Origin: a bacterium
GTDB taxonomy: Bacteria > CAIJMQ01
Direction: 5' to 3'
Length of the DNA stretch: 48,222 nt
Assembly (NCBI GenBank): GCA_023135785.1
Contig: JAGLSL010000008.1
Location: forward strand, 1 to 48,222
Shown: positions 8,997-46,110 of the stretch, piece after piece
How positions within the stretch are numbered: position 1 is the first letter of the stretch
Layout of the letters: each line of letters begins with the position of its first letter
Program-made: the position numbers and the translations under genes
The notes under the pieces: generated by a model
Told to the model about the DNA's origin: nothing
Database searches by the model: none
What the model saw: only the letters and a program-made list of their open reading frames with translations

Positions 8997-9009
8997 AGAA
9001 TTTTGTTTT

Positions 9010-9673: not shown

Positions 9674-9798
9674 TTCTAACGCATAGAAATGCGTTAGAAT
9701 TACCCCGCAGAGTATCGAAAAAATATCGAAGACCCAGGGTATTATTAACAATGGGGCGAGAGATTTTTTTGATGTTTTACGATACGGGGTTTCGTTGA
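9672..9798 (+). repeat. 127-bp direct repeat, copy A (30-bp palindrome AATTCTAACGCAtagaaaTGCGTTAGAATT plus an ACCCCG...CGGGGT unit at 9702-9790)
   Basis: Base-for-base identical to 10193-10319. Begins inside the zapA stop codon. Confidence 0.9.
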
Positions 9799-9818
9799 AA
9801 TAGAAATACGTTCCGTTT

Positions 9819-9973
9819 ACCCCGTTTAGAGATTTTACGTCGAATAGAACCCTTTACTTAAATAGAAGTATAAAAGGTAATTACGGAAGAAAATTTTTAC
9901 GAATAAGTTACACTCCGACAACGATACGCCGGAGTTATCCCCGCCTTGCCGTCGAGACAGGTCTAACAGGGGT
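9819..9973 (+). repeat. degenerate ACCCCGTTTAGAGAT...GTCTAACAGGGGT element
   Basis: Arms related to the 19881 and 22676 elements. An internal hairpin (CTCCGacaacgatacgcCGGAG) precedes the right arm. The right arm abuts the -35 box of the 6S-like RNA promoter. Confidence 0.5.
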
Positions 9974-10000
9974 TTACAATCCAATTTTGCGTGTTATAAT
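9973..10000 (+). promoter_or_regulatory. strong sigma-70-type promoter: TTTACA-N16-TGT-TATAAT (extended -10)
   Basis: TTTACA at 9973-9978, TG at 9992-9993, TATAAT at 9995-10000. A G at 10008 lies 7-8 nt downstream. Confidence 0.6.
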
Positions 10001-10007
10001 AAGTCAA

Positions 10008-10187
10008 GGCTCTGGGATATACGTGATGGAATAAATGGAATCTTGAGCCAAATAGTTAAAAAGGGAATTCTACTTTGGGTAAAGCGTGTACGTCCCGATG
10101 TAATGTCGGGAAAACACAAACTATTCAAGGGAATACCCACTTTGTAAAGCAGCTTTAAGATTCCTGTCCCACACGGTATCTTGGGGC
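10008..10187 (+). ncRNA. ssrS: candidate 6S RNA
   Basis: 180 nt starting 7-8 nt after a near-consensus promoter. The 5' end GCUCUGGGAUAUACGUG pairs with the 3' end CACACGGUAUCUUGGGGC, followed by UUUUU. A second helix forms between GGAAUCUU and AAGAUUCC. The centre is largely unpaired, and the apical hairpin is GUGU-acg-UCCCGAuguaaugUCGGGA-aa-ACAC. UGAGCC on the 5' side and UUCAAGGG on the 3' side resemble elements I recall in E. coli 6S RNA. Location downstream of zapA matches the E. coli zapA-ssrS arrangement. Confidence 0.55.
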
Positions 10188-10192
10188 TTTTT

Positions 10193-10319
10193 AATTCTAA
10201 CGCATAGAAATGCGTTAGAATTACCCCGCAGAGTATCGAAAAAATATCGAAGACCCAGGGTATTATTAACAATGGGGCGAGAGATTTTTTTGATGTTTTA
10301 CGATACGGGGTTTCGTTGA
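10193..10319 (+). repeat. 127-bp direct repeat, copy B
   Basis: Identical to 9672-9798. Followed at 10321-10339 by half of the TGCGTTAGAATT palindrome and then another unit. Confidence 0.9.
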
Positions 10320-10339
10320 TATAGAAATGCGTTAGAATT

Positions 10340-10426
10340 ACCCCGCAGAGTATCGGAAAATTTCCACGAGGAAATTTCTGTAAAAATGTCTGTTGGAGAT
10401 TTTTTCGATAGTTTACGATACGGGGT
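10340..10426 (+). repeat. ACCCCGCAGAGTATCGG...TTTACGATACGGGGT unit (near-copy of 6243-6328)
   Basis: Same interior as unit 2 of the array after tRNA-Gly, including the hairpin GAAATTTCCacgaGGAAATTTC, with 1-2 differences. Confidence 0.85.
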
Positions 10427-10536
10427 GATTAAATTCTTCATTCCTTTAAATACAATTTCAAAAATCAAATTATAAAGTGTAGAATAGTACGCTTACTAAT
10501 GAGAGCACTTTATACTTAACATTTCATACGTGAGCT

Positions 10537-10681
10537 GTCATTCCTGCATGTAGTAAGCAGGAATCCAGTCTTTCGTCATGAATAGATTCGTCCCCAAGTG
10601 TTTCTATTGGGGATAAAAATCCCCGATTACTGCATTCGGGGGCAGGCTATTCGGGAATGACAAAAGAGGGGCGGGAATGAC
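10537..10681. repeat. GTCATTCC...GGGAATGAC palindromic element with internal hairpins
   Basis: Left end GTCATTCCTGCatgtagtaaGCAGGAATCC. Right end CGGGAATGACA occurs twice (10653-10661 and 10673-10681). Internal hairpin TCCCCAagtgtttctaTTGGGGA. Confidence 0.7.
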
Positions 10682-10746
10682 ACACAATGTAAAGTACTTT
10701 CTGTCCTCCTTAGTAATATCAATAGTATTAACATATAAAAAAATAT

Positions 10747-11763
10747 ATGCTGCCAATTATTGGAATAACGATGGGCGACCCTGCCGGAATAGGCGGAGAA
10801 ATTATCATAAAATCTCTCAAACAAAAAGCCCTGCGCTCAAAGTATTGTCCCGTTATTATCGGTGATTTTTCCTATTTGAAACTCCTCATAAAAAAACTTT
10901 CTAGTCCCTTAAAAATAACCAGTATAAATAAAATTAAAGACAGAAAATCCTTACCCATTGACGCAGTCCCCATAATTGACCTGAAAAATTTGGAAAATAA
11001 AAAAATAAAGTTTGGAATATGTGACACTGGTTGCGGGAAAGCTTCTTACGAATATATAGCCAAAGCCATAGAATTAGCTTCTTACGGATTTATTGACGCG
11101 ATTGTTACAGCCCCCATAAACAAAGAAAGTTTTCATAAAGCACATATACCTTATACCGGACATACGGAAATGTTGGCTAAACTTACAAAAACGAAAAATT
11201 TCGCAATGATGCTCGTAGGCGGAAAATTAAGAGTCGTATTAGTGACAAGACATATCCCCATTAAAAATGTTTCAAAAAAATTAACTGAAGAAAAAGTTTT
11301 CACAGCTATAAAACTTGCCCACAATGCAGGTAAATATTTCAATATCACTAAACCAATAATAGGCATCTGTGGACTTAATCCTCATAGCGGCGAAGGTGGA
11401 ACTATAGGAGATGAAGAGATTAAAATAATTATACCCGCAATCAAGAAATCCAAAAAAACGGGAATAAACGCGATGGGACCATATGCTTCGGATACTATTT
11501 TTTATAAAGCTTTAAAACCTGCCCGCCAAAGTTTGTCAGGCGGGGGAAACTATGATTTTGTTGTTGCAATGTTCCACGACCAAGGACTTATACCTTTAAA
11601 AGCGCTTTATTTTGACGAAGGGGTAAACGTTACCTTGGGATTGCCTTTTATCCGAACCTCGCCCGACCACGGTACGGCTTATGATATTGCAGGAAAAGGC
11701 ATCGCAAATCCTAAAAGTATGCAGGAAGCGATAAAATTAGCTGTAAAAATGAGCCGTATTTAA
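10747..11763 (+). CDS. pdxA: 4-hydroxythreonine-4-phosphate dehydrogenase
   Basis: 338 aa. GITMGDPAGIGGEII, GHTEMLA, MFHDQGLIPLK and LPFIRTSPDHGTAYDIAGKG motifs. Confidence 0.9.
   Translation: MLPIIGITMGDPAGIGGEIIIKSLKQKALRSKYCPVIIGDFSYLKLLIKKLSSPLKITSINKIKDRKSLPIDAVPIIDLKNLENKKIKFGICDTGCGKASYEYIAKAIELASYGFIDAIVTAPINKESFHKAHIPYTGHTEMLAKLTKTKNFAMMLVGGKLRVVLVTRHIPIKNVSKKLTEEKVFTAIKLAHNAGKYFNITKPIIGICGLNPHSGEGGTIGDEEIKIIIPAIKKSKKTGINAMGPYASDTIFYKALKPARQSLSGGGNYDFVVAMFHDQGLIPLKALYFDEGVNVTLGLPFIRTSPDHGTAYDIAGKGIANPKSMQEAIKLAVKMSRI
11518..11547 (+). repeat. GC-rich mini-palindrome CCTGCCCGCCaaagtttgtcaGGCGGGGGA, in frame inside pdxA
   Basis: Encodes PARQSLSGGG in a loop that, from my memory of E. 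coli PdxA, is about 9 aa longer here (between DT.F and AM.HDQGL). Confidence 0.6.
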
Positions 11764-11789
11764 AATAAAATTTACAAATTTAACTTTTA

Positions 11790-12614
11790 TCAGAAAGACT
11801 GAATTTTCTTCCTGATTTTCTTAATCATCCAAGGCGGAGTAGATGCTCCTGCGGTTATTCCGACTTTTTGAAAATTTTTAAACCATTCTTTCTTAAGTTC
11901 AGATTCGTCTTCAACCTGACAAGCGCGTTTCTTATTTTTTATACATAGTTCCAGCAACTGTCGTGTATTGGCGCTATTATGTCCGCCTATTATTATCATT
12001 ATATCCACATCCTTTAAAAGTTTTAGCGTAGATGTTTGTCTTTTTCTGGTGGCGTCACAGATAGTATTTATTACCTTGATCTCTTTGGAGCATTTTGATG
12101 CTTTTAAAACAACCTGTTGAAAAATATTCTCACTCATTGTGGTTTGAGCTACTACTCCGCAGGAACCAATAGATTTGTTTTGTAATTCTGATTTATCTTT
12201 TACCACAATCACATTACCCTGCAAGAACGGTAATATACCTCTAATTTCAGGATGTTTCTTGTCCCCGACTATTATTAATTGTTCACACATCTTGCTAAGT
12301 TTGATAGCTTCATCCCGGGCTTTTTTTACGAAAGGACAAGTCGCATCAATAATTTTTTTTACTCTCGGTTTTATTTTCTTAAGCACTTCAGGAGAAATGC
12401 CATGTGAAGGAATAATTACTATTTCATTATCTATTTTTTCAAAATTCTCTATGACTACAATGCCTTTGTTTTCCATTTTTCGGACCATAGGAGGATTATG
12501 TATTAAAGCGCCCAGTGTGTAAACCTGTCCATTTTTAGCCGCATCTAAAGCTATTTTTACGGCTCTTTTTACACCGAAACAGAAGCCTGCATTCTTAGCA
12601 ACAATTATTTTCAT
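11790..12614 (-). CDS. ispH: 4-hydroxy-3-methylbut-2-enyl diphosphate reductase
   Basis: 274 aa. MKIIVAKNAGFCFGVKRAV, ATCPFV and the third Cys context TICDAT, then IIIGG.NS.NT. Confidence 0.9.
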   Translation of the reverse strand: MKIIVAKNAGFCFGVKRAVKIALDAAKNGQVYTLGALIHNPPMVRKMENKGIVVIENFEKIDNEIVIIPSHGISPEVLKKIKPRVKKIIDATCPFVKKARDEAIKLSKMCEQLIIVGDKKHPEIRGILPFLQGNVIVVKDKSELQNKSIGSCGVVAQTTMSENIFQQVVLKASKCSKEIKVINTICDATRKRQTSTLKLLKDVDIMIIIGGHNSANTRQLLELCIKNKKRACQVEDESELKKEWFKNFQKVGITAGASTPPWMIKKIRKKIQSF

Positions 12615-12627
12615 TTTATTAACTGAC

Positions 12628-12720
12628 TGTCATTGCGAGCCCAAACATAGTGAAGGCGTGGCAATCTAAAAATGAGATTGCTTCGTCGTCCCGCTTTCAG
12701 CGGAGCTTCTCGCAATGACA
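12628..12720. repeat. TGTCATTGCGAG...CTCGCAATGACA palindromic element
   Basis: 12-bp perfect terminal inverted repeats. Internal hairpins GCAATCTaaaaatgAGATTGC and CCGCTttcAGCGG. Confidence 0.8.
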
Positions 12721-12724
12721 AGCA

Positions 12725-13150
12725 TTAAGTGTTACTTTCATTTTTATTCTTTAAGATTCTCGAAATGGAAGGTAATGTATCTTTGTTTATCTGATTTAAT
12801 TTTTTCTCGTATACAAACAATGCATAGAAAGTTAAAACAAAAGTGATGCCCCCTGCTATGGCAGAGACAATTTCACTGCGGCTTATGCCCCATAGGATTA
12901 AATATCCGATTAAAAAAGTCATTATCGGTAAAATAAAAACAAGGAAACTCAATTTGGAAATCATACCCTCGGAAATAAATATTTCCACTTCGTTTCCAAT
13001 TTTGGCTCCAATATCATTGTCAGCAGTTAGCGTCCTTTGCCCTTCATCATCAAGCATACAAATTCTACATTTATCGCAATGTTCAGAAGCGCTTAAAAGC
13101 ACAACTGCCCTATTTTCTTCTATCTTTATAACTTTCCCTATTTCAATCAT
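12725..13150 (-). CDS. RseC/MucC-family (SoxR-reducing system) membrane protein
   Basis: 141 aa. N-terminal beta domain with CDKCRIC, followed by two TM helices, which is the typical RseC layout. Confidence 0.6.
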   Translation of the reverse strand: MIEIGKVIKIEENRAVVLLSASEHCDKCRICMLDDEGQRTLTADNDIGAKIGNEVEIFISEGMISKLSFLVFILPIMTFLIGYLILWGISRSEIVSAIAGGITFVLTFYALFVYEKKLNQINKDTLPSISRILKNKNESNT

Positions 13151-13331
13151 ATGACTATCATTTTAGGTAAAGCACACCGAGTTGGCAAATAAAAATTCAG
13201 AATTCTTCCCAAAGAAAATCTAATAGTGTATTATATACAATCTAATCGCATATAAGTGCGTTTAGATTATCCCGCTGAATGCGGGACTAAAGAAAACCAC
13301 AGCAGAAGAAAGAAGATTAAGGAAAGTTTAT

Positions 13332-13964
13332 ATGAGCGATTTAAATAAAATAGCGGAAAATGTAATTAGCGGCAAAGCCGAGGATGTGAAAAACTTAGTC
13401 CAGCAAGCGTTAGATGAAAATATCCCTCCAAAAAAAATATTGGATGAAGGATTGATTGCGGGGATGAATATCGTAGGACAAAAATTTAAAAATAACGATT
13501 TTTATATTCCGGAAGTGCTTATTGCGGCAAGAGCTATGCATAGCGGAATGGATGTGTTAAAACCAAGTCTTGTGAAATCAGGAGTAAAACCAATAGCAAA
13601 AATTGCAATCGGCACAGTAAAAGGCGACTTGCACGATATCGGAAAAAATCTCGTCACAATGATGCTTCAGGGCGCGGGTTTTGAAATAAATGATTTGGGT
13701 ATCGATGTCCCCCCGCAGAAATTTATTGAAGCAGTCAAACAAGGTATTCAAATTATAGGATTAAGCGCCCTTCTTACTACAACAATGCCGTCTATGAAAG
13801 AGATAGTTGATACTTTTAAAAAAGAGGGATTAAGAGATAAAGTTAAAATTATGGTGGGAGGAGCGCCCTTAACCCAGGAATATGCCGACGAGATAGGAGC
13901 TGATGGTTTCGCCTCCGATGCCGCATCTGCCGTAGATAAAGCAAAAGAATTGCTTAAGTTATAA
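13332..13964 (+). CDS. cobalamin-binding (corrinoid) protein, methyltransferase-cognate type
   Basis: 210 aa. Helical cap followed by a B12-binding Rossmann domain with the DxHxxG (DLHDIGKN), SxL (SALLTTT) and GG (VGGAP) motifs. Confidence 0.8.
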   Translation: MSDLNKIAENVISGKAEDVKNLVQQALDENIPPKKILDEGLIAGMNIVGQKFKNNDFYIPEVLIAARAMHSGMDVLKPSLVKSGVKPIAKIAIGTVKGDLHDIGKNLVTMMLQGAGFEINDLGIDVPPQKFIEAVKQGIQIIGLSALLTTTMPSMKEIVDTFKKEGLRDKVKIMVGGAPLTQEYADEIGADGFASDAASAVDKAKELLKL

Positions 13965-14023
13965 GTTATTTTATAATCCCGCAATCTGAATGATAATTTT
14001 TTCATCTTCAACGAAAAAATCAG

Positions 14024-14097
14024 CGTCCCCAGGAGGAGTCGAACCTCCAACCTACGGATCCGAAGTCCGTTGCTCTATCCAGTTGAGCTATGGGGAC
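14024..14097 (-). tRNA. tRNA-Arg (anticodon TCG)
   Basis: The reverse complement folds as GTCCCCA-TA-GCTC-AACTGGATA-GAGC-A-ACGGA-CTTCGGA-TCCGT-AGGTT-GGAGG-TTCGACT-CCTCC-TGGGGAC-G. Confidence 0.9.
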
Positions 14098-14142
14098 AAA
14101 AACATCACATACGTTAAGATAAAAAAGTTTTGGGTTTTGCAA

Positions 14143-15210
14143 CTATAACCATTTTTTACGCCTGAAGTAGAGCATCATTAAACCGGCAACACCAGCCATT
14201 ATTAACAAAACAAAAGGGTAGCCCAATTTCCACCCAAGCTCCGGCATAAACCGAAAATTCATTCCATAAACTCCCGCAATAAATGTCAACGGAATAAATA
14301 TGGTCGCAATGATTGTGAGCACTTTCATGACTTCGTTCATTCTATTGCTTATACTCGAAAGATAAATATCAAGCATTCCAGAAAGCATATCCCTAAATGT
14401 TTCTACGGAATCAATTACCTGAATGGTATGGTCGTAAACATCCCTCAAATATACCATTGTGGTTTTATAGATAAGCTTTGATTCTCCTCTTTGCATATTG
14501 CTTATTATTTCTCTTAACGGCCAAATAGATTTACGCAGTGACATCATCTCTCTTTTTAAGTTATGAATTTTCTGTGCGGTTTTTGTTGTCGGCTCCAGCA
14601 TAACCTCATCTTCTAAAGACTCGGTTTTTTCGCCCAATTTTTCAAGAATAAGAAAATATCCGTCAACTATGGCATCTATTAATGAATAGGCAAGATAGTC
14701 GGACTTCATTTTTCTTATTTTCCCTTTATTTGTTCTGATTCTTCCTCTGATTGAGTTAAAAATATCCCCTTCAGCTTCTTGAAACGAAATAACAAAATTA
14801 GAACCAAAAACAATGCTTACTTGTTCCTCTTTTATTCCGTTATTTTTTTCATTCTGATAAAGCATTTTCAAAACTATAAAAATATGTTCCGGGAAATCCT
14901 CTATTTTAGGGCGTTGAGATGTGTTAACAATATCTTCCAAAATTAAAGAATGAAGATTAAAGTGCTCCCCAACTTTTCGTATAAGGTCAAGATTATGTAT
15001 GCCGTCTATGTTTATCCAGGTTACAGTAGGCTTATCCCTGTATGGGAAAGCTTCCTCGATAGTTTTTACTTCCTTTTCTTCAAAAGTTTTTTCGTCATAA
15101 TCAAAAATCGTTATCCTTACCTTTGCATCCCTTTCTTCGCCTATGTGCACCAAAGTTCCCGGCGGCAGTCCAACCATTTCAGAACTTTTTTTAGTAGATT
15201 TCCAAAACAT
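14143..15210 (-). CDS. corA: magnesium/cobalt transporter CorA
   Basis: 355 aa from MFWKSTKK, with RBS AAGAGGTG upstream. YGMNF signature and two C-terminal TM helices. The longer ORF-track start at 15258 lacks an RBS. Confidence 0.9.
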   Translation of the reverse strand: MFWKSTKKSSEMVGLPPGTLVHIGEERDAKVRITIFDYDEKTFEEKEVKTIEEAFPYRDKPTVTWINIDGIHNLDLIRKVGEHFNLHSLILEDIVNTSQRPKIEDFPEHIFIVLKMLYQNEKNNGIKEEQVSIVFGSNFVISFQEAEGDIFNSIRGRIRTNKGKIRKMKSDYLAYSLIDAIVDGYFLILEKLGEKTESLEDEVMLEPTTKTAQKIHNLKREMMSLRKSIWPLREIISNMQRGESKLIYKTTMVYLRDVYDHTIQVIDSVETFRDMLSGMLDIYLSSISNRMNEVMKVLTIIATIFIPLTFIAGVYGMNFRFMPELGWKLGYPFVLLIMAGVAGLMMLYFRRKKWL

Positions 15211-15433
15211 TTTCACCTCTTTTCGTTTGCATTTATTACCAATCTTTATATACCTCAAAACTCGCTTTGGTTTTATTTATACTAAATCGCAGGCAAGCTG
15301 TCAAAATTGTCACCTTGAGCAAAATCTTGTAAAAAATATTTTAGAGGATATGCTAATAATTTATCAGCTGTAGATATATAGAATCCTAAGCAGATATGAT
15401 AAAATTCACCAGTAACACTTGAAAGGAGCTATT

Positions 15434-16069
15434 ATGAGCGTCGAAGTTGAAAAATTATGCGAGCGATATCCTGACTTAATTGCCTGCAGAAAAGATATCG
15501 AATCTGCAATAGACACAATAAAGGGATGTTATGAAAACAATAATAAAGTATTAACTTGCGGAAACGGCGGAAGCGCAGCCGATGCTGAACATATAGTAGG
15601 CGAATTAATGAAGGGGTCTCGTAAGAAAAGGAAGGTTTCAAGTGTTTTTTCTGAAAAAATAAAAGGATTTTATCCGCAAGAGTGTGAACAATTATGCGAC
15701 AACCTCCAAACTCCGCTGCCTGCGGTTGCGCTCACTTCTCATTTATCTTTTACAACAGCTTTTAACAATGATATGAATCCGGAGTTTACTTTTACACAGC
15801 AACTTTTTGGGCTTGGGAAAGAGGGAGATGTTTTAATAGCATTGTCCACTTCCGGAAATGCAAAAAATGTTATCAATGCTTGCAAACTGGCAAAAGTTCT
15901 GGGTATAAAAACTGTCGCTTTAACAGGAAGAGACGGGGGGAGGCTTAAAGATATATGCGATATTGTTATACGTGTTCCGGAGGATGAAACATTTCTTATT
16001 CAGGAATACCACCTACCTATTTATCACGCAATATGTTCTGCAATAGAGAATGAATTTTTCGAGGAATAG
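15434..16069 (+). CDS. SIS-domain sugar-phosphate isomerase (GmhA-like phosphoheptose isomerase)
   Basis: 211 aa from the ATG at 15434, preceded by AAAGGAG. CGNGGSAADAEH and STSGN motifs. Confidence 0.65.
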   Translation: MSVEVEKLCERYPDLIACRKDIESAIDTIKGCYENNNKVLTCGNGGSAADAEHIVGELMKGSRKKRKVSSVFSEKIKGFYPQECEQLCDNLQTPLPAVALTSHLSFTTAFNNDMNPEFTFTQQLFGLGKEGDVLIALSTSGNAKNVINACKLAKVLGIKTVALTGRDGGRLKDICDIVIRVPEDETFLIQEYHLPIYHAICSAIENEFFEE

Positions 16070-16071
16070 TT

Positions 16072-16911
16072 TTACAACTTAATTTGCATTCCCTCATAAA
16101 CAGCAAAACATTTCAAATTGCTCTTTTCTTTCTTAATTATCTGCTTACAATCTTTAACTATTTTGTCTAAATCCTTGTCTTCTCTCTCCTGATTATGATG
16201 GAATAGACCAAACTTTTTCACATTAGCTTCCATGGCTAATTTTAACGCATCTTTGTAAATGGAATGTCCCCAACCTTTTTTAGTTTTATAATCCTTTTGT
16301 GTATATTCGCAATCGTGTATAAGCAGGTCGGCTCCTGACGAAAAATCCACATAATCTTTATAATCAAGCCCTCCGGGGTGTTTAAAGGTTAATTCATTAT
16401 CTGTTAGAAAAACAAAAGATTTGTTATCTTCTATAAATTTATAACCTAATCCACCATTGGGGTGACTTAACGATATCGGGATAACCGTAACGGAATCTAT
16501 CCGAAACTTATCCTTACAAGCCTCATGATAAGAAATGTTGGCCTTGATATCTTCATAATTTACAGGGAAATAAGGAGGAGTCATTGATATTTTGAGAAGT
16601 TCCTTGATTGATTTTTGGGCAAACGGATAACCATACATTTTTATACGCGCTTTTTGGGTATATATGGGCTTAAAAAACGGAAACCCCAATAGATGATCCC
16701 AATGCGCATGTGTAAAAACGATATCATAACTATACTTTTTTTCTTCAAGAAGTTTAATCCCTAATTTTCTAATACCTGAACCCGCATCGATTATGATTAT
16801 TTCGCCATTCTTGCTCCTTACCTCCATGCAAGTGGTAGAACCTCCATATTTAATATATTCTTTGCCCGAAACCGGTATTGAGCCCCTTGCCCCCCAACAT
16901 TTAATAATCAT
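16072..16911 (-). CDS. MBL-fold metallo-hydrolase
   Basis: 279 aa. HAHWDH metal-binding motif, then further downstream His/Asp residues (DCEY, GHS, FHHN). Confidence 0.75.
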   Translation of the reverse strand: MIIKCWGARGSIPVSGKEYIKYGGSTTCMEVRSKNGEIIIIDAGSGIRKLGIKLLEEKKYSYDIVFTHAHWDHLLGFPFFKPIYTQKARIKMYGYPFAQKSIKELLKISMTPPYFPVNYEDIKANISYHEACKDKFRIDSVTVIPISLSHPNGGLGYKFIEDNKSFVFLTDNELTFKHPGGLDYKDYVDFSSGADLLIHDCEYTQKDYKTKKGWGHSIYKDALKLAMEANVKKFGLFHHNQEREDKDLDKIVKDCKQIIKKEKSNLKCFAVYEGMQIKL

Positions 16912-17025
16912 TTCAAATCCTCTTTTTTGGTAAAATTACTAACGTGATACAAATGATAGCATTACTGTGTAGTTATCTTCAAGTATTGTAACTTTTTAGG
17001 TGTTTTTAGAGTATTATATGTAGGA

Positions 17026-17523
17026 ATGGTAAATAAGATGATTTGCAAAGACTACGAAAAACAAATCTCAGGGATTTTGGATGGAGAAAAACTTCCCCGC
17101 CAAATTTTATCTCATATAGACGAATGCAAATCTTGTCTTAATTTTTATAGAGATACCATAGATTTACAAAGGGGTTTCAGCGAGATAGAAAAATTAGAAC
17201 CATCGCTGGATTTTGATGCAAAGATTCTTGAAAAACTAAAAATGCGACCTTCCTATTACAAGATTCTAATTTTAATCAGTCCCTTTATTATTTTTATTTC
17301 TTTTTTGCTTACCTCTCTTGTTGTTGGAAGATACTCCACTCAAATTACCGTGTTTTGCGCAAAAATATTAAAAATCTGGGAAGTTTTATCCGGATTGTTT
17401 TCATATAAATTTTACATCTCTGGAATTTTATTGTTTCTAAGTGCCGCATTTATTGTCATTACTTTTAGCGTATTTGATATCGTTTTACTTTCAAAACTTA
17501 TTAAAAATGGAGGAGAGTTATGA
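17026..17523 (+). CDS. putative zinc-finger (zf-HC2) anti-sigma factor, membrane anchored
   Basis: 165 aa. N-terminal C..........H...C..C pattern (CKDYEK...SHIDECKSC), followed by hydrophobic TM segments. Confidence 0.55.
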   Translation: MVNKMICKDYEKQISGILDGEKLPRQILSHIDECKSCLNFYRDTIDLQRGFSEIEKLEPSLDFDAKILEKLKMRPSYYKILILISPFIIFISFLLTSLVVGRYSTQITVFCAKILKIWEVLSGLFSYKFYISGILLFLSAAFIVITFSVFDIVLLSKLIKNGGEL

Positions 17524-18533
17524 AAAAAGTATTGATATTGTTTTGTTTTTTAATGTTATCTTCCGTATTATTGGCTAGTGAAGTTTTCCACATCGAGCAA
17601 TCCACAATTATAAAAGAGGACTTGGTTCTCATAGGCAAATCCTGCGTGATAGATGGAACCGTTAGAGGAGATGCCGTTATTATTAACGGAAACTTAGAAC
17701 TTAACGGAACGGTTGAGGGAGATGCCGTCGTTCTCGGCGGAGAAGCAATAGTCAACGGACAAAGCCACGTAAAAGGAGATTTGGTTATTGTAGGAGGAAA
17801 CCTTATAAAAGCAGAAGGTGCTTTTGTAGACGGCGAGGTCGTAATAATCTCCCTGGGACCCTTAAAAAATCTGTTTAAACTTATACCCTCGGTCGTGCAA
17901 TTCTCAACGGAAAACGGCAAAATCACAATTGAAGGAGACAGTATAATAAAGCCCTTCGGACAAGGGACAAGACAGACGCATACACGACATACATTTGGAT
18001 GGAAACCCAGCCCAATTTTGCCCTCTTGGATATTACTCGTAAAAGGGATTGCTCTATCAATGTTTATAATGATTTTCACTGCTATTTTCTCATCCGGGTC
18101 AGAAACAATGGCGCTTTATTTAGAGAAAAAACCGAGGCAAGCTTTCTTTGCCGGATTTTTAGCGCAGATTTTATTTGTTCCTGCGATTATCGTTCTTGTT
18201 TTTAGCATAATCGGAATTTTATTTATTCCTTTCTTAATGCTCGCTTATCCTATAGCATTGCTTGTAGCTCTTGTGCCTTGTTCGCTTTTTATAGGCAAAA
18301 AAATCGTTAAAGAATCCGCTTTTTTTAATGAAAAGAGATCTCTAATATCATTGATAGGACTTCTCATCCTTTTTATTATGCTTTTCCTGGGGCAACTGCT
18401 TCAAATAGGAAGCTCCGCATTAAATATTATTGGAGGAAGTATTTGCTTTTTAACACTTTTTGCATTTTATCTCTATTTTACTTTCGGGCTGGGCTGTCTT
18501 ATATTATCAAGAGTAGGCACGAGAAAACCCTGA
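17520..18533 (+). CDS. membrane protein with N-terminal bactofilin-like (polymer-forming, beta-helical) repeat domain
   Basis: 337 aa. Signal/anchor sequence, then G(D/T)V.GD.V...G.L...G repeats, then about 5 TM helices. ATGA overlap with the upstream gene. Confidence 0.6.
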   Translation: MKKVLILFCFLMLSSVLLASEVFHIEQSTIIKEDLVLIGKSCVIDGTVRGDAVIINGNLELNGTVEGDAVVLGGEAIVNGQSHVKGDLVIVGGNLIKAEGAFVDGEVVIISLGPLKNLFKLIPSVVQFSTENGKITIEGDSIIKPFGQGTRQTHTRHTFGWKPSPILPSWILLVKGIALSMFIMIFTAIFSSGSETMALYLEKKPRQAFFAGFLAQILFVPAIIVLVFSIIGILFIPFLMLAYPIALLVALVPCSLFIGKKIVKESAFFNEKRSLISLIGLLILFIMLFLGQLLQIGSSALNIIGGSICFLTLFAFYLYFTFGLGCLILSRVGTRKP

Positions 18534-18669
18534 ACCCTGCTCCACTGGTTTTACCTCCCCCCTGCACGCAGGGGTTGGTTTATAACCGTGGTCTCGGGGT
18601 CATTACCGTTCGGAAAATTCTAACATTTCTATCTTATGTAGCATCGGGGGTTTTGGGGGAGCGGGGTAA

Positions 18670-19185
18670 ATGGAACTGGATGCAAAATTCATAGAAAAGT
18701 TATATAAAAAGGACGAAGAAGCATTAGGAGTCTTTTTGGGCGAATTCAAAGTCCCGCTTTATAATTATATTTATAGAATAATTTATAACAGGCACGATGC
18801 GGAAGATATTCTGCAAGAAGTATTCTTAAAGATTTTCCGAAATATTTTCAAAATAGACTTTTCTAAAAATTACAAGTCTTTTATTTATAAAATAGCAAGA
18901 AATGCAACCCTGGACTTTCTTAAAAAAAGAAAAGAAGAATATAAGTTTAACAAGAAACCGATAGAAAAAGACGAAGAATCCTGCGAAAAATTAGAGATAA
19001 AAAACACTATAGAAATAGCGCTAAGGAGTCTAAATACAAAAGAAAGAGAGTTAATTGTTTTGAAGTATATCCAAGGTTTTAAAATTTCCGAGATCAGCGA
19101 AATTCTCAAAATACCCGAAAGTACAATTAAGATAAGGACATTTAGGATAATAAGAAAAATGAGAAATTATATGCAAGACAAATAA
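18670..19185 (+). CDS. ECF-type RNA polymerase sigma factor
   Basis: 171 aa. Region 2 (AEDILQEVFLKIF, IARNATLDFLKKR) and region 4 HTH (ISEISEILKIPESTIKIRTFR). Confidence 0.8.
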   Translation: MELDAKFIEKLYKKDEEALGVFLGEFKVPLYNYIYRIIYNRHDAEDILQEVFLKIFRNIFKIDFSKNYKSFIYKIARNATLDFLKKRKEEYKFNKKPIEKDEESCEKLEIKNTIEIALRSLNTKERELIVLKYIQGFKISEISEILKIPESTIKIRTFRIIRKMRNYMQDK

Positions 19186-19211
19186 GAAAATTTTGCCACT
19201 TTTGCTGAATA

Positions 19212-19451
19212 TCACTTTCTCAATTTCTTCACAACATATACTTTCAGAGGACACTTACATAGATAACAAGACTCAAAAAGAAATGAGTATTCACATAGCC
19301 AAGCATCTTTATTGGAACATTCTACAAACGATTCCATTGGAGTATCTTTTGTCATAGAAAGATTTTTAAAATCAGACCTGTAGCATGCAAAATCTTTTGG
19401 ACATTTCATTTCGCTCATTATTTTTTCTATTTGTTCTTTATGCTCTATCAT
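19212..19451 (-). CDS. small Cys-rich hypothetical protein (8 Cys in 79 aa)
   Basis: ORF only. Co-oriented 22 nt downstream of the 108-aa ORF. I recognise no family. Confidence 0.4.
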   Translation of the reverse strand: MIEHKEQIEKIMSEMKCPKDFACYRSDFKNLSMTKDTPMESFVECSNKDAWLCEYSFLFESCYLCKCPLKVYVVKKLRK

Positions 19452-19473
19452 TTTTTTTTCTTCCTGTTTTTAT

Positions 19474-19800
19474 TTAATCGGAAAAACTTATCCCAATCGG
19501 CAAATCTTTCCATTTTTCGCTAAGACAAGGAGGATTTTGGGGATTATTTTGTTTACAACAAGTTAACCTCCCCCAACCGAATTTTCTTAAGAGTTTACAA
19601 ATAACAAGCAAGTCTTTTCCACTAAAGTATTTATCTGCAAATTTTTTAATGGTCTCAGGTTTAAACTTTCCAGTCCCATTATTTTCTACGGCTACTACCA
19701 CTAATAAAAGAAGTGCTGTTAATTCTTTCCCTGATAATATATTGATTAGATAAGAATCAATTTTCTTAAGAATTTTAAACGATCTAAATATCTTCTCCAT
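19474..19800 (-). CDS. hypothetical protein (possible winged-helix fold, Cys-rich C-terminus)
   Basis: 108-aa ORF. AT-rich. First gene of a two-gene minus-strand unit, divergent from the XRE gene. Confidence 0.4.
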   Translation of the reverse strand: MEKIFRSFKILKKIDSYLINILSGKELTALLLLVVVAVENNGTGKFKPETIKKFADKYFSGKDLLVICKLLRKFGWGRLTCCKQNNPQNPPCLSEKWKDLPIGISFSD

Positions 19801-19880
19801 ACACTTGTAAAAAAGGAACTATTTCACTTATTTTTTATAATAAATATTATATATTATTCCTAAGTATAGAGTGTTTGTCA

Positions 19881-20006
19881 ACCCCGTTAGAGATTAAAGA
19901 GAAAAAAATATAATTCATCTCAATAATTAGGAGACAAAAAGAGAATGTATGTAAATATTAAACTGTGATTTACGGTAGCCTTATGGCTACCTATCTCTAA
20001 CGGGGT
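19881..20006. repeat. ACCCCGTTAGAGAT...ATCTCTAACGGGGT element (126 bp, perfect 14-bp terminal inverted repeats)
   Basis: Arms at 19881-19894 and 19993-20006. A-rich interior ends with the hairpin GGTAGCCttatGGCTACC just before the right arm. Confidence 0.85.
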
Positions 20007-20060
20007 CAAGGGTTTTAAAAACTTGTAGGTTAAAAATTATTATGATATTATTCCCCAGCC

Positions 20061-20561
20061 ATGAAACGACGAACTGAACAAACTATTTTGTTAGCAAAAG
20101 AGATTGGTCTAAAGCTAAGAAATATAAGGAAAAAACTGGAATTAACTCAAAAACAGCTTTCTCAAAAGATACCGGATAAATTAGATTATACATATATTGG
20201 AAAAATTGAACGGGGCGAAATACTACCTTCACTTAAAATGCTTAAAAGGATAAGTGAGGGATTGAAAGTTCCTGTAGATTTTTTCTTTCAAAAAGAAACA
20301 GTGACAGAGTTACTGAACATTCTGCCTCAAGAGATCAGAGATATTGCTCGGGACATTGATAAAGTTGCTTTTTTTAGAGCAATAAAAGAACTGGACAAAA
20401 AAGATATTCCTTTAGTAACTGAAATAATAAGAATACTGAACAAACATCGTATATCTTTGAATGAGGGCAAAGTTCACAGATATTTTCCTTCCGCAGAACA
20501 CACGGTTAGGTTGGTAGCCGAAAAGAAAACTTCTTATAAGCGCAAGAAATCTGACAAATAA
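20061..20561 (+). CDS. XRE-family helix-turn-helix transcriptional regulator with C-terminal extension
   Basis: 166 aa. LRNIRKKLELTQKQLSQKI....YIGKIERGE..PSL..L.RIS..L.V. Confidence 0.75.
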   Translation: MKRRTEQTILLAKEIGLKLRNIRKKLELTQKQLSQKIPDKLDYTYIGKIERGEILPSLKMLKRISEGLKVPVDFFFQKETVTELLNILPQEIRDIARDIDKVAFFRAIKELDKKDIPLVTEIIRILNKHRISLNEGKVHRYFPSAEHTVRLVAEKKTSYKRKKSDK

Positions 20562-20576
20562 GACATTTTTCTTGCG

Positions 20577-21608
20577 TTATTTATTTTTGGGGAAATACTT
20601 TTCTATAGCTGCCTGGATATAACCATCGTAAGCTATAACCAATTCAATAACGAAAGGAGTAAACTTACTTACTTGCATTCCTATCAAAGCAACTTGAGGC
20701 TGGGAGATGGCAACTACGAGTATATCGTCTTTTTTCTCTACTGGAATGACGCCCAACTCACGCACCGTTTTTTCCGGAAGGATGGTAGCTATTTCTTGCG
20801 GTATATTTAAACTTGACAGGTCTACCCAAGATAGATGAAATTGGCTGGCTAAAGCAACACATATATCAGTGGGAGTTATATGCTTAAGGTCTACTAATAT
20901 TTGCCCTAACTTTTTGTCTTTCTGTTCCTTTTGCTTGTTAAGGGCATCCTCCAATTGGTGAGAAGTAATATAACCCGCACCGAGAATAATTTCTCCCAAA
21001 GGTTTAATTTTTGTCTTTTCTATAAGTTTTTGTTCCGCTCTTCTTATTTCATCTTCAATTATAAAAAACCCTTCTGATTGCTGGGTAATAGTTTCTTTCT
21101 GTCCTCCGTCTTTCTTTTCTCTTTCCATCCTTTGTTGTTTAAATAATCGCTCCACTTCTTCCAGAGTAATGTTTTGTTGGTCTATTAATTTTTTACCCAA
21201 CAATCTTTTGCAATCAACGTTTTTAACCGTAGCAGCATTTATATAAATACGTTCGCTTTTATCCGCAGGATTTATAGGCACTATAAAAAAACCGGCATCT
21301 TTGAGATTATATTTGTTAGTAGAGCCGTCAACTATCTGTCCGTCCTTAAATTCCACCTTCAGCCTATAGGGAAGAACACCTGCATATATTGACTGGTCTA
21401 TGGTTTCTTTGTGCAGAATGTTTCCGCTGCTGTCTTTTTTCTTGAGAAAGATAATTTGTTTGATTAAATCTATCTTAATGGGGATGTTGTCTATTTCGCC
21501 TTTGTCGTTCTTGGATTGCAAATAAAACACGGGAAAGTTCATATTGAAACTGAACACTTCCCCTTCTTTTTCTTCTCCTTCTAAAAATTTAACTATAACA
21601 TGGTGCAT
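20577..21608 (-). CDS. protein with C-terminal T2SS-E N-terminal (MshEN-like) domain and duplicated N-terminal beta-rich modules
   Basis: 343 aa. C-terminal LGEIILGAGYITSHQLEDALNKQ....KLGQILVDLKHIT..D...ALA.QF.L..VDL....I........P....RE..V.PV is the GspE/MshE N-domain pattern. There is no ATPase domain. Confidence 0.6.
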   Translation of the reverse strand: MHHVIVKFLEGEEKEGEVFSFNMNFPVFYLQSKNDKGEIDNIPIKIDLIKQIIFLKKKDSSGNILHKETIDQSIYAGVLPYRLKVEFKDGQIVDGSTNKYNLKDAGFFIVPINPADKSERIYINAATVKNVDCKRLLGKKLIDQQNITLEEVERLFKQQRMEREKKDGGQKETITQQSEGFFIIEDEIRRAEQKLIEKTKIKPLGEIILGAGYITSHQLEDALNKQKEQKDKKLGQILVDLKHITPTDICVALASQFHLSWVDLSSLNIPQEIATILPEKTVRELGVIPVEKKDDILVVAISQPQVALIGMQVSKFTPFVIELVIAYDGYIQAAIEKYFPKNK

Positions 21609-21863
21609 TTAACTTGCATCCCTTCTGGTTTGGATAAGCAAGATTCAATTAGACATCGCAAACATCACAGCCTAAATTCCCTCACCGTTTGGTATCTTAG
21701 CATAGATATATATAAATTCAAAATGGAATTTTTCATAAAAATCTTATATTAAAACACCGGAGTTTACTCTTTATTTTTTATCTTTATAAGTGTTAGAATT
21801 AACCGTAAAATAAAATTAGTTTGTATGACATTATAATAACGGCTAAATTAGGAAATTTCTAAT

Positions 21864-22685
21864 ATGAATAATTTTGGGTTGGAATTTTTAAAGGTGTCCG
21901 GAACTGGTAACGACTTCATCATAGTTATAAATGTAGAAAATAAATATAACTATGAATGGTCCAGTCTGGCAAAAAATCTATGCAGGCGTCACCTATCTAT
22001 AGGAGCAGATGGGCTTATCGTATTGGAAACTTCTCTCAAAGCAAATGCCAGAATGAGAATATTTAATTCTGACGGGAGCGAAGCAGAGATGTGCGGTAAT
22101 GCAGCGCGCTGTTCTGCGCGGGTTCTTGTGCATAAAAAACTAACTATCCCAGGTGAAGTTAGTCTGGAAACACTCTCCGGAATTATCACGGCACAGGTAA
22201 AAGAGGATACAGTGAAAATAAAAATGACACCACCACATAGTTTCAAGGAAGAGATACATATAAAAATTGATGGCACGGATTATATCGGAAGTTTTATTAA
22301 TACAGGCGTCCCTCATGCTGTTTTTTTAACTGACGACATAAATAAAATAGACTTACTTGAGATTGCGCCTAAAATCAGAAATAATGAACAGTTTCAGCCG
22401 GAAGGAACAAATGTCAACTTTGTGCAAATCCTAGATAATAATTCAATGTCCATCCGCACATATGAAAGAGGAGTGGAAGACGAAACCTATGCATGCGGCA
22501 CAGGCGCCGTTGCTTCAAGTATCGTAAATTTTATAAAAGGCAACTTAAAAACAAACCTTATAAAAGTGCAAACAAAAGGCGGAGAATTAACTGTTTCCAT
22601 AGAAGGGACACCCGATAAAATAGAAAATATTTACCTTGCCAGTCCCGTTGAAATAATTTATTCAGCAAAAATTTCACCCCGTTAG
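21864..22685 (+). CDS. dapF: diaminopimelate epimerase
   Basis: 273 aa. SGTGNDFIIV and both catalytic Cys contexts (MCGNAARC, ACGTGAVAS). The last 3 codons and the stop lie in a repeat arm. Confidence 0.9.
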   Translation: MNNFGLEFLKVSGTGNDFIIVINVENKYNYEWSSLAKNLCRRHLSIGADGLIVLETSLKANARMRIFNSDGSEAEMCGNAARCSARVLVHKKLTIPGEVSLETLSGIITAQVKEDTVKIKMTPPHSFKEEIHIKIDGTDYIGSFINTGVPHAVFLTDDINKIDLLEIAPKIRNNEQFQPEGTNVNFVQILDNNSMSIRTYERGVEDETYACGTGAVASSIVNFIKGNLKTNLIKVQTKGGELTVSIEGTPDKIENIYLASPVEIIYSAKISPR

Positions 22686-22803
22686 AGATTAATTTAATAG
22701 AAAAAGTTTAGGCTTTACCAAAGTTTTAAAGCTAAAAACAGGGAAAGAAAACCTTGGGAGTATGACAGAAATGTCAAAAGACATTTCTTATCTCTAACGG
22801 GGT
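22676..22803. repeat. ACCCCGTTAGAGAT...ATCTCTAACGGGGT element (128 bp)
   Basis: Arms at 22676-22689 and 22790-22803 are identical to those of the 19881 element. The interior is unrelated but has the same layout, with the hairpin AGAAATGTCaaaaGACATTTCT before the right arm. The left arm supplies the dapF stop codon. Confidence 0.85.
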
Positions 22804-22820
22804 TTAGGAGAAGAAATAAA

Positions 22821-23993
22821 ATGATTGATGTTTCAAAAAAATTAAAAGCACTTGTTGAATACCCTTTTGCAGAACTTGACAGAAAAAAAGCAGAAGTTTT
22901 GAAAAAAGGTGGTGACGTTATATCCCTTGGAATTGGCGACCCCGATTTAGGACCGTTTCCGAGTGTAATAGAAAAACTAAAAGAATCAACATCAACGCTC
23001 AATGTAAATAAATACCCTTCATATAAAGGCAGCGAAGAATTACGCTACGCTGTTGCAAAATGGTATAAAGACAGATTCGGTGTAAAACTTGACCATGAAA
23101 CAGAAGTTCTAATTCTAATAGGCGCAAAAGAAGGCATAGGACATATACCATTGGCTTTTGTTGACCAAGGGGACAGCGTATTAGTACCAGACCCCGGATA
23201 TCCGGTATATAAGGCGGGCACTATTCTGGCTGGTGGTTCACCTTTAACTATGCCATTGCACGCAGAAAACGGATTTCTTCCGGATCTAAAAGACATTGAA
23301 AAAAAATATGGGCCTCAACTTATAAACTGTAAAATGATGTTCTTAAATTATCCAAATAACCCGACCAGCGCCATAGCTGACGAAGGCTTTTTTAAAGAAG
23401 TCGTCGATTTTGCGCAGCGACACAATATAATCATCTGCCACGATGCAACTTATTCGGAAATTACTTATGATAACTATAAAGCACAAAGCTTTCTGGAAAC
23501 AGAAGGAGCCAAAAATGTCGGAGTAGAATTCCATTCGCTTTCAAAATCCTGCAATATGACAGGTTGGAGAATTGGATTTGTAGTAGGCAATAGAGAAGTA
23601 ATTGTAGGATTGGGGAAAGTAAAAACAAACATGGATTCAGGTGCGCCAAACCATATGCAGATTGCAGGGATAGAAGCGATAAATACAATGCAGGAAAATT
23701 TGGGAAGGATTCTTCCGGTATATAAAGAGAGAAGAGACCTATTAGTGAAAGCAATGCAGGAAGCAGGCATCAATATGCAGTCTCCAAAAGCGACATTCTA
23801 CCTGTGGATTCCTGTCCCTGCTGGCATGAAGTCTGTAGACTTCTGCGGGAAAGTACTTGAAGAATGCGGCGTTCTGGTAACACCCGGCACAGGTTTTGGA
23901 GCTGAAGGTGAAGGTTATTTCAGGATAAGCTTAACCGCCTCCACAGAAAAAATAGAAGAAGCATATAAAAGAATTAAAAATTTGAAATTGTAA
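22821..23993 (+). CDS. dapL: class I/II PLP aminotransferase, probable LL-diaminopimelate aminotransferase
   Basis: 390 aa. N.PNNPT and SLSKS.NM.GWR (PLP lysine) motifs. Immediately downstream of dapF. The substrate assignment is an inference from synteny. Confidence 0.6.
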   Translation: MIDVSKKLKALVEYPFAELDRKKAEVLKKGGDVISLGIGDPDLGPFPSVIEKLKESTSTLNVNKYPSYKGSEELRYAVAKWYKDRFGVKLDHETEVLILIGAKEGIGHIPLAFVDQGDSVLVPDPGYPVYKAGTILAGGSPLTMPLHAENGFLPDLKDIEKKYGPQLINCKMMFLNYPNNPTSAIADEGFFKEVVDFAQRHNIIICHDATYSEITYDNYKAQSFLETEGAKNVGVEFHSLSKSCNMTGWRIGFVVGNREVIVGLGKVKTNMDSGAPNHMQIAGIEAINTMQENLGRILPVYKERRDLLVKAMQEAGINMQSPKATFYLWIPVPAGMKSVDFCGKVLEECGVLVTPGTGFGAEGEGYFRISLTASTEKIEEAYKRIKNLKL

Positions 23994-24047
23994 AATTGTC
24001 GGATTTTAAAAATTTTCTCCACTTTTAAAAAATTTAACTTATTTTTT

Positions 24048-45261: not shown

Positions 45262-45267
45262 TGTTAG

Positions 45268-45291
45268 CCCCGTTAGAAATATTTTAACGGG
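45268..45291. repeat. minimal CCCCGTTAGAAAT...TTAACGGG hairpin (arms of the ACCCCGTTAGAGAT family without an interior)
   Basis: CCCGTTA/TAACGGG stem in the hisH-hisF spacer. The right arm runs into the hisF RBS GGGAGG. Confidence 0.55.
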
Positions 45292-45306
45292 AGGAAAAGA
45301 TAACAA

Positions 45307-46110
45307 ATGGAAAAAGAAACTAAATTTCTAACAGGGTTAGCAAAAAGAATAATACCCTGCTTAGACGTAAAAGGCGGACGTGTTGTAAAAGGCATTAAGT
45401 TCCGTGAACACCGTGACGCCGGCGATCCTGTAGAACTTGCCTTTTTTTATAATAAAGAGGGTGCTGATGAGCTGGTATTCTACGACATTACAGCATCCAG
45501 TGATGAGCGTTCCATAATGCTTGATGTGGTTCGGCGAACAGCTAACCAGCTTTTTATACCCCTTACCGTAGGTGGCGGTCTGCGTACTGTGGATGACATG
45601 AACCAAATGCTGAAAGCCGGAGCGGACAAAATATCTATTAATACCGCAGCAGTAATGAACCCCAAATTGATATCAGAGGGCGCGCAACGCTTCGGCAGTC
45701 AATGCATAGTGCTTGGAATGGATGCCAAGCGTATCCCCGATTCAAATCCAGTTCGCTGGATTATTCACACTCATACAGGCGCGGACGGAGGACATTCCGC
45801 AGGTCTGGATGCAATAGACTGGGCAAAACAGGCAGTGGAACTGGGAGCGGGCGAGATTGTGGTAAACAGTATTGATGCCGATGGCACTAAAAAGGGATAT
45901 GACCTGGAGTTGCTACGCGCTATTTCAGAAAATGTTTCAGTCCCTGTAGTTGCCAGCGGCGGAGCAGGTAATTTAGACCATCTTGCCGAAGCCCTGACTA
46001 AAGGCAAAGCCGATGCAGTCCTCGCCGCTTCAATCTTTCATTATGGCGAATATTCAATTAAAGAAGCAAAAGAATATCTTAAAAAGAAGGGAATTCTTGT
46101 AAGAATATAA
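45307..46110 (+). CDS. hisF: imidazole glycerol phosphate synthase, cyclase subunit
   Basis: 267 aa. [26 protein letters not shown] and ASGGAG...ASIFH. Confidence 0.95.

Follow-up and report, generated by a model that had tools for sequence, protein, structure and literature searches.

Short paired-arm repeats in a bacterial genome as probable gene-less copies of a very small mobile family bearing a GIY-YIG nuclease gene

The window analysed here, a 48,222-nt stretch of bacterial DNA (contig JAGLSL010000008.1 of GenBank assembly GCA_023135785.1), contains two elements of 126 bp (19881-20006) and 128 bp (22676-22803), termed copy 1 and copy 2, which are bounded by the same 14-mer, inverted at the right end, and carry a hairpin just inside the right arm. 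The interiors of the two copies could not be aligned, with 325 of 500 shuffled sequences scoring equal or better. The question raised by this locus is how an element keeps its length and shape when its sequence is not kept. The first-pass annotation of the window had suggested selection on an RNA or DNA structure, such as an RNase III processing stem or a recombinase site. Our analysis indicates that the elements are mobile DNA and not a host structure, and that they are probably non-autonomous, internally deleted copies, similar to miniature inverted-repeat transposable elements (MITEs), of a very small mobile family bearing a gene for a GIY-YIG nuclease.

The exact 14-mer ACCCCGTTAGAGAT was found at 19881-19894 and 22676-22689, and its reverse complement at 19993-20006 and 22790-22803. 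With up to two mismatches allowed, the window held six arm matches against 0.23 expected, and none of 100 shuffled windows reached six. The hairpin of each copy lies one base inward of the right arm. When folded as single-stranded DNA, both copies formed an arm stem with the hairpin stacked beside it (z = -5.8 for copy 1 and -5.6 for copy 2). These exact matches and both hairpins confirmed the two full copies as first annotated.

The genome to which the window belongs (G000; 1.34 Mb, 104 contigs, 37% G+C, contigs written as C and a number) contained the exact 14-mer 49 times and the reversed control pattern not at all. Arm matches with up to two mismatches numbered 135 and formed 45 left-right pairs less than 400 bp apart, in size classes of 31–33, 67–73, 89–105, 122–134, 155–158, and 273–323 bp. 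A T was present three bases before the 14-mer in 35 of the 45 pairs and an A three bases after it in 41, with a weak G before and a weak C after this TNNA target. The flanking 4-mers, counted with the outermost arm base, were identical in 22 of the 45 pairs (shuffle mean 3.8, maximum 10). The corresponding numbers were 41 of 85 among short copies from public sequences (mean 6.4, maximum 16) and 14 of 83 among the full-length copies described below (mean 4.2, maximum 10), and inverted flanking 4-mers showed no enrichment. The base preferences and identical 4-mers indicate that the true unit is not a 14-bp arm, as first described, but a 13-bp inverted repeat, CCCCGTTAGAGAT, together with a 4-bp TNNA target duplication. 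On this basis the window contains the following features, where G000–G003 are genomes of the window's genus and G004 is a genome of the neighbouring genus.

19878..19881, no strand: left target duplication TCAA of copy 1; a single TCAA without the element in G002 and G003
19882..19894, forward strand: left 13-bp terminal inverted repeat of copy 1, CCCCGTTAGAGAT
19895..19973, no strand: variable interior of copy 1; member of a cluster of 20, best match C61_2118 (87% over 38 nt)
19974..19991, no strand: subterminal hairpin of copy 1, GGTAGCC-TTAT-GGCTACC; separated from the right arm by a single base (T, 19992)
19993..20005, reverse strand: right 13-bp terminal inverted repeat of copy 1
20006..20009, no strand: right target duplication TCAA of copy 1
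22673..22676, no strand: left target duplication of copy 2, now TTCA; TTTA in G001
22677..22689, forward strand: left arm of copy 2; dapF takes its codons P and R and its TAG stop (22683-22685) from here
22767..22788, no strand: subterminal hairpin of copy 2, AGAAATGTC-AAAA-GACATTTCT
22790..22802, reverse strand: right arm of copy 2
22803..22806, no strand: right target duplication TTTA of copy 2; directly 5' of the dapL ribosome-binding site
45264..45340, forward strand: copy 3 (71 bp) with its TTAG duplications; GAAAT-variant arms at 45268-45280 and 45324-45336
9816..9976, forward strand: degenerate copy 4, 153 bp (9820-9972), with TTTA duplicated on both sides; 6S RNA gene 33 bp downstream

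Two of these entries alter the first description. What had been taken for an arms-only mini copy at 45268-45291 was the left end of the complete copy 3, which is flanked by TTAG at 45264-45267 and 45337-45340. The degenerate copy reported near 9819-9973 is real; its bounds are 9820-9972 with TTTA on both sides, and each of its arms contains an indel. The interiors were regarded as unrelated, and this holds for copies 1 and 2 but not for the genome as a whole: the 40 interiors of at least 60 bp fell into clusters of 20, 7, 3, and 2, with eight singletons, the interior of copy 1 belonging to the cluster of 20 and that of copy 2 being a singleton. Copies in this genome span 31–323 bp, and most of their interiors have no GIY-YIG open reading frame (ORF). 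A covariance-model scan of the window against Rfam at the gathering score detected the 6S RNA and three tRNAs only, and the elements gave no match.

Comparison with related genomes revealed empty sites. At the dapF-dapL junction, G004 has a single TTTA without the element (...AAATATTTAGGAGAATAAAATG) and no arms anywhere in its genome, and G001 has an element with TTTA on both sides. The hisH-hisF site of G004 is likewise empty and reads ATGCTGGCAAAAAGA, while a 71-bp copy follows ATG-TTAG at this site in all four genomes of the genus. At the site of copy 1, G002 and G003 have a lone TCAA. The copies C17_5119 and C75_19495 are absent from G001 despite flanks 95–98% identical, and the former is present, with a similar interior, in the more distant G003. 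Decayed copies were observed in G003 at the C75_19495 site and in G002 at the C9_17493 site. Presence and absence together with decayed orthologues indicate insertions of different ages, of which the old ones lose their arms, and this loss argues against selection on the arms at the level of the host. Public sequencing runs covering window positions 9000–24000 (three DNA and one RNA) gave a strain contig spanning both copies, and no contig from these four runs joined across an empty site; the contig of one run ended 27 bp before copy 2. The RNA-run contigs covered parts of dapF and dapL, with the element itself uncovered. Terminal inverted repeats, target duplications, empty sites, and a small multi-copy form without its own gene, the characters by which MITEs are recognised, were all present.

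The source of such copies was suggested by longer arm pairs. The first full-length cases were arm pairs about 279 bp apart in the genomes G018, G043, and G002, each enclosing an ORF of 86 amino acids. A metagenome scan for arm pairs 240–270 bp apart returned at least 121 stretches. We analysed 83 full-length elements (80 loci plus the copies in G018, G043, and G002; pairs 270–291 bp apart), whose modal size was 279 bp, exactly so in 44. All 83 arm pairs contained a GIY-YIG-derived gene, which was intact in 79 and carried a stop or frameshift in four. This gene of about 86 codons starts about 9 nt inward of one arm and runs through the other, which forms its five final codons (L-S-L-T-G); the flank contributes the stop codon (TAA or TGA). 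Close full-length copies were present in G002, of the same genus as the window, and in G018, G042, G043, and G045.

The encoded protein matched the Pfam GIY-YIG domain (PF01541; E ~1e-16), three proteins scoring 60–62 bits where the cut-off is 22.6. Among 34 sequences, Y3, Y5, G18, R26, H30, E50, and E62 were invariant, and Y16 and N76 were at least 90% conserved; these we take to be the Tyr..Tyr, Tyr-x-Gly, Arg, His, Glu, and Asn residues of the catalytic motif. The gene is under purifying selection (pN/pS 0.25 over 1953 pairs; dN/dS ~0.15 over 321 unsaturated pairs). The closest solved structures are the UPF0213 proteins 1zg2 and 1ywl (E 2.6e-7 with a single sequence, 2.4e-9 with a profile), with SLX1 a weak third by sequence. 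A homology search yielded 5909 protein clusters, of which the top 120 were at least 74% identical and spread over many phyla, and 84 of these 120 carried the arm-encoded SLTG. Some of these homologues are called 'excinuclease ABC subunit C', which is misleading for an 86-residue protein, and others 'putative endonuclease' or 'GIY-YIG nuclease family protein'.

Full-length and short copies share a subterminal stem. In full-length copies, a stem of at least 10 bp (10–15 bp) was found in 53 of 76 against 3 of 380 shuffled interiors. Its two halves are the L-R-K-R-F codons (about position 90) and the segment immediately 5' of the 3' arm, and it covaries although both of these are coding (GGAAACGCTTCAG/CTGAAGCGTTTCC versus AGAACCGCCTC/GAGGCGGTTCT). 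Short copies are laid out as an arm, one base (A in 52 of 58), a stem of 6–12 bp, a loop of 2–11 nt (most commonly 3), and GT. A hairpin exactly one base from the arm was found in 69 of 105 copies of 95–140 bp compared with 79 of 1050 interior shuffles, and the short-copy hairpins comprised 58 distinct stems. At about 75 nt, the rest of a short copy is as long as the 5' leader and the first ~24 codons of the full-length form together. A profile of the full-length element recognised 2 of the 105 short-copy interiors at E<=0.01 (0 of 525 shuffles), and one coding remnant, at C98:6151-6284, reads IFYTYVLRSCKDGK and then stops. Thus the short copies look like internal-deletion derivatives of the full-length form, which, having the same ends, is the gene-bearing relative to be looked for in a MITE family.

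These data also bear on what the first-pass annotation had put forward. The check named there, a catalogue of all copies with a test for compensatory changes, gave the 45 arm pairs of this genome and compensatory change in the hairpin stems. Its view that structure rather than sequence is conserved was upheld by the hairpin counts and the 58 stems; the accompanying idea of host selection was not. Its counter-possibility, that the interiors are merely diverged versions of one sequence without structural covariation, applied in part, since a few interiors retain decayed GIY-YIG coding sequence but the hairpin does covary.

The family extends well beyond the genus. Among 41 genomes around G000, the exact 14-mer occurred in the four genus genomes (49, 21, 17, and 41 times) and in one distant genome, and the reversed control pattern in none. 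In species-representative genomes, arm pairs 75–105 bp apart gave at least 120 stretches. Labels of metagenome-assembled genomes among the matches listed included Omnitrophota, Planctomycetota, several Patescibacteria lineages, Elusimicrobia, Ratteibacteria, Endomicrobiales, and Clostridia. Five such genomes contained 37–81 exact arms each, mostly as pairs 105–125 bp apart among the matches listed. Viral contigs had no exact match to either spacing pattern, and carriage by phages was dropped as an explanation on this ground.

We propose the following scheme for how the family moves. Each member has 13-bp inverted repeats (CCCCGTTAGAGAT or the GAAAT variant) as its ends, inserts at T-N-N-A, and duplicates 4 bp. 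The GIY-YIG protein would be the enzyme that cuts both the ends and the target. By analogy with Slx1, a structure-specific relative, it probably recognises the folded arm-plus-stem. Insertion would be completed by host repair or ligation, and the short copies would be moved in trans or would be relics. Copies of about 120–130 bp probably arose by loss of ~165 nt between the stem halves, with retention of both arms, the stem as a short hairpin, and ~75 nt of decaying 5' coding sequence. Only copies with arms and stem would be mobilised again, and the remainder would drift. Selection of this kind, acting on arms and stem at the level of mobility, would yield the same length and shape without the same sequence. 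The recombinase site of the first-pass annotation survives in this broad sense only, in that the ends behave as the site of a DNA-mobilising enzyme.

In a bolder form of this proposal, the 279-bp unit would represent a new class of autonomous DNA transposon, with the 86-residue GIY-YIG nuclease as its only protein, cutting TNNA with a 4-nt stagger. We advance it tentatively and stop just short of favouring it. Under this proposal, the enzyme would recognise folded ends (the 13-bp arm helix stacked on the covarying stem) and not a long sequence, and the gene-less derivatives would have colonised many phyla of small-genome bacteria and reshaped gene ends there. We know of no autonomous transposon as small as 279 bp.

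Several observations weigh against a GIY-YIG-driven family. GIY-YIG nucleases act by hydrolysing DNA, and strand joining is not known for them, so that the transposition chemistry is incomplete. Perfect duplications were scarcer around full-length copies (14 of 83) than around short ones; full-length flanks often read TTTA...TGAA or TTCA...TAAA, a pattern not fully explained, and the stop codon after the arm may be under selection. No close full-length copy was found in the assemblies of G000, G001, G003, G041, and G044, five of the ten arm-rich genomes. A recent burst of the autonomous form was not seen: the three full-length copies in G042 were 71–75% alike and two of them were broken. Gene homology was detectable in only the 2 of 105 short-copy interiors mentioned above, and the 103–105-bp class and the 273- and 323-bp copies do not have the typical hairpin. 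At the dapF-dapL site, the interiors of G000 and G001 differ from that of G003 at the same TTTA, which needs re-insertion, replacement, or a hot spot. Finally, all collection scans demanded exact arms, which places diverged relatives outside the sample.

The strand-joining difficulty is one reason to consider that the arms are mobilised by another enzyme (an HUH/Y1 transposase or an unassembled DDE insertion sequence), with the GIY-YIG gene as a passenger or a secondary selfish gene. HUH/Y1 enzymes act on single-stranded hairpins, Y1_Tnp (PF01797) genes occur in G000 (4), G002 (2), G003 (1), and G043 (5), and several arm-rich genomes have no close full-length GIY-YIG copy. However, G001 has 21 exact arms and no Y1_Tnp match, and HUH elements are not known to make target duplications, which are present here. 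The Y1 genes of G000 (224–326 aa; C31:3317-3655, C60:7870-8196, and C33:31060-31383) are flanked by their own ~20-bp inverted repeats, AATCGGGGGACACAATACCTA at C33, and not by the arms, and RAYT/IS200 enzymes were set aside as mobilisers for this reason. PF13701 (IS1380-type) had no match in G000–G003, nor PF01609 (IS4/IS5-type DDE) in the genus. An IS1380/piggyBac parent, at first suspected because the 13-bp arms have CCC and the duplication is 4 bp long, was set aside as unlikely. PF13843 (piggyBac) also had no match, but the control genomes were likewise without one. A transposase of a known insertion sequence was therefore not found as mobiliser in a search covering PF13701, PF01609, and Y1_Tnp, other families not having been searched. 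Moreover, the GIY-YIG gene and nothing else lies in 83 of 83 arm pairs of 270–291 bp, the arm contains the end of the gene, and the short copies have kept the stem that lies inside the gene. We consider a foreign mobiliser unlikely.

Homing offers another account of the gene, in which the GIY-YIG protein is a homing endonuclease that cuts empty sites, and the element is carried into them when homologous loci recombine during repair, for example following DNA uptake, instead of transposing to new loci. The GIY-YIG domain is a classic one among homing nucleases, the proteins are at least 74% identical across many phyla, and 33 of the 83 full-length copies (metagenome loci L143–L207) lie in a single gene family with an ORF6N-like C-terminus (...FDAIRELM...KKRPIGF...). 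Within this gene, however, the copies occupy several different positions in the 3' part. The protein consists of the ~70-residue catalytic domain alone with no DNA-binding domain, and the short copies occur at dozens of unrelated loci per genome with their own 4-bp duplications, an outcome that homing does not yield; homing as the explanation is very improbable. We give equally little credence to a structure kept by the host, namely arms and hairpin acting as an RNase III stem, a stabiliser, or an insulator, with mobility incidental or past. The 13–14-bp arm stem and the 7–11-bp hairpin, with one unpaired base between them, would form a near-continuous transcript helix of ~22–25 bp, copies lie at the dapF-dapL and hisH-hisF junctions, and the hisF copy is retained in four genus genomes. 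That retained copy has no hairpin, however, and is conserved where it encodes the ribosome-binding site, start codon, and N-terminus. Many copies lie within coding sequence, the contexts examined in many phyla shared no common gene context, and a terminator-pattern scan found no site in copy 1 or copy 2. The target duplications, the presence and absence between near-identical genomes (flanks 95–98%), the decayed arms of old orthologues, including 9820-9972, and the cross-phylum distribution all speak against host selection on an RNA-processing site, as first suggested. Mobilisation by the GIY-YIG enzyme of the family itself is the reading that we retain.

Insertion has altered several genes next to the elements. 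Copy 2 was inserted in the last codons of dapF, and its left arm now gives P-R-stop; the stop TAG at 22683-22685 inside this arm agrees with the first-pass annotation. The match to the DapF profile extends as far as residue 270 of the 273. When copy 2 and one duplication were removed in silico, the ORF ended in ATGA, overlapping the dapL start, and in G004 the dapF-dapL junction is uninterrupted. Copy 3 was inserted directly after the ancestral hisF ATG (45261-45263), parting the gene from its start. Within this copy lie a GGAGG (45290-45294) and the ATG (45307) from which hisF now starts; the match to the HisF profile sets in at residue 10, and all four genus genomes share this new start. Copy 1 lies between divergent genes, and its duplicated TCAA overlaps a minus-strand TTGACA box, which was left intact. 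Related copies at C9:21555-21682 (L269) and C2:2924-3053 (the latter measured as a unit with 14-bp arms) were found inside type IV pilin-like leaders, where they contribute 44 in-frame codons including the duplication and regenerate the ...L-T-G/F-T-L-I-E processing and N-terminal methylation motif (Pfam N_methyl, E 1.5e-5). The reading frames of several public GIY-YIG ORFs likewise continue into GFTLIELL. The element thus accounts for odd gene ends (the dapF stop, the hisF start, and the in-frame prepilin leaders) and for small repeats that break assemblies.

Some further observations were made in the same genomes. The 6S RNA gene at window positions 10006-10191 (Rfam, 95.6 bits) begins 33 bp past the degenerate copy 4. 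In a groundwater metatranscriptome, a 184-nt contig with 4 differences and a depth of 2423 matches 10008-10191, and the 6S RNA appears to be strongly expressed by a close relative of the window organism. Six small GIY-YIG genes are present in G000, none bounded by arms and all at most 50% identical to the arm-bounded clade. Arm-less small GIY-YIG genes with 19–22-bp direct repeats lie at C1:37472-37720, C57:6659-6883, and C86:210-401; the repeats at C57 and C86 resemble tRNA gene ends, and C1 has a tRNA-Gln gene nearby. These look like a second, tRNA-targeting kind of gene cassette. Other small hairpin repeats were nested inside the copies at C9:17493-17815 and C61:2118-2274 and in the dapF-dapL copy of G001 (L001). 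The nested types are a ~30-bp CCCGCCTGCC...GGCAGGCGGG hairpin directly adjoining an arm, a ATTCCCACCTCGGAGGTGGGAAT hairpin whose 16-mers occur 7–11 times in the genome, and GTCATTCCCGC...GCGGGAATGAC hairpins. Two additional dispersed repeats of ~100 bp, unrelated to the arms (C75:~17910-18090 and C9:~19730-19980), match dozens of loci at 75–93% identity in all four genus genomes. A supposed 1.8-kb long element at C20:4962-6792 was discarded, as it was a murJ-like gene between chance or degenerate arms. This murJ-like gene (C20:4987-6564) is split into adjacent ORFs of 219 and 301 aa by a frameshift or an assembly error. At C20:~4960, an arm-like match, ATCTCAAACGGGG, falls in the UvrC N-terminus (PISNGVY...), which is also a GIY-YIG domain; this match was taken as a coincidence.

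If the proposal is true, a nuclease family joins the short list of enzymes of DNA transposition, and the element would be an exceptionally small autonomous one and a simple system for structure-guided DNA cutting. Recognising it would also improve the annotation of genomes from uncultivated phyla. The literature covered, with subscription journals mostly outside it, contained no bacterial GIY-YIG element with inverted repeats and target duplication. Work on GIY-YIG proteins with terminal inverted repeats, MITEs, or insertion sequences was eukaryotic, viral, or unrelated only, and the arm sequence returned unrelated primers only. One paper (PMC12455944) places a GIY-YIG domain protein among genes predicted to have moved from Patescibacteria to other bacteria. 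The element family with a GIY-YIG parent looks undescribed, and an earlier description is possible.

Several known systems share part of this organisation. Integron attC sites have the inverse core (..AAC) at the 5' end and the core (GTT..) at the 3' end, and are found in cassette arrays beside an integrase. They were rejected as a model: the order is reversed here (GTTAGAG...CTCTAAC on either strand) and the copies are dispersed singly; an integrase was not searched for. IS200/IS605 elements with their PATE derivatives and REP/REPIN sequences with RAYT are likewise very small, with a structural hairpin at the end and abundant non-autonomous derivatives, but they use an HUH tyrosine enzyme and are not known to have terminal inverted repeats or a target duplication, both of which are present here. 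This excluded IS200/IS605-derived PATE; REP/REPIN with RAYT was rejected because the Y1 genes are associated with other repeats, G001 has arms without Y1_Tnp, and the target duplication is present. GIY-YIG homing genes (I-TevI, Seg) and the UPF0213/YhbQ proteins share the Pfam GIY-YIG domain and the habit of a selfish, horizontally spread gene. The 86-residue protein, unlike I-TevI-type homing genes, has no DNA-binding domain, and the elements have 13-bp inverted repeats, a target duplication, and gene-less derivatives, none of which we know for homing endonuclease genes. The piggyBac/IS1380 elements share 13-bp inverted repeats starting with CCC and a 4-bp TTAA-like target duplication, whereas the gene between the arms here encodes a GIY-YIG nuclease. 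The closest resemblance in behaviour is to bacterial MITEs, such as the Correia/NEMIS elements of Neisseria and the Rickettsia palindromic elements. These are likewise short and gene-less with dozens of copies, have terminal inverted repeats and a target duplication, and lie at gene junctions, sometimes in frame, where they can donate stops, ribosome-binding sites, and starts. The elements behave as MITEs, although their parent resembles no insertion-sequence family that we could recall or find. In contrast to MITEs, this parent is a 279-bp unit with a GIY-YIG nuclease only instead of a DDE insertion sequence, the duplicated target is the 4-bp TNNA rather than TA, the conserved end contains a covarying subterminal hairpin, and the same arms are found across many phyla.

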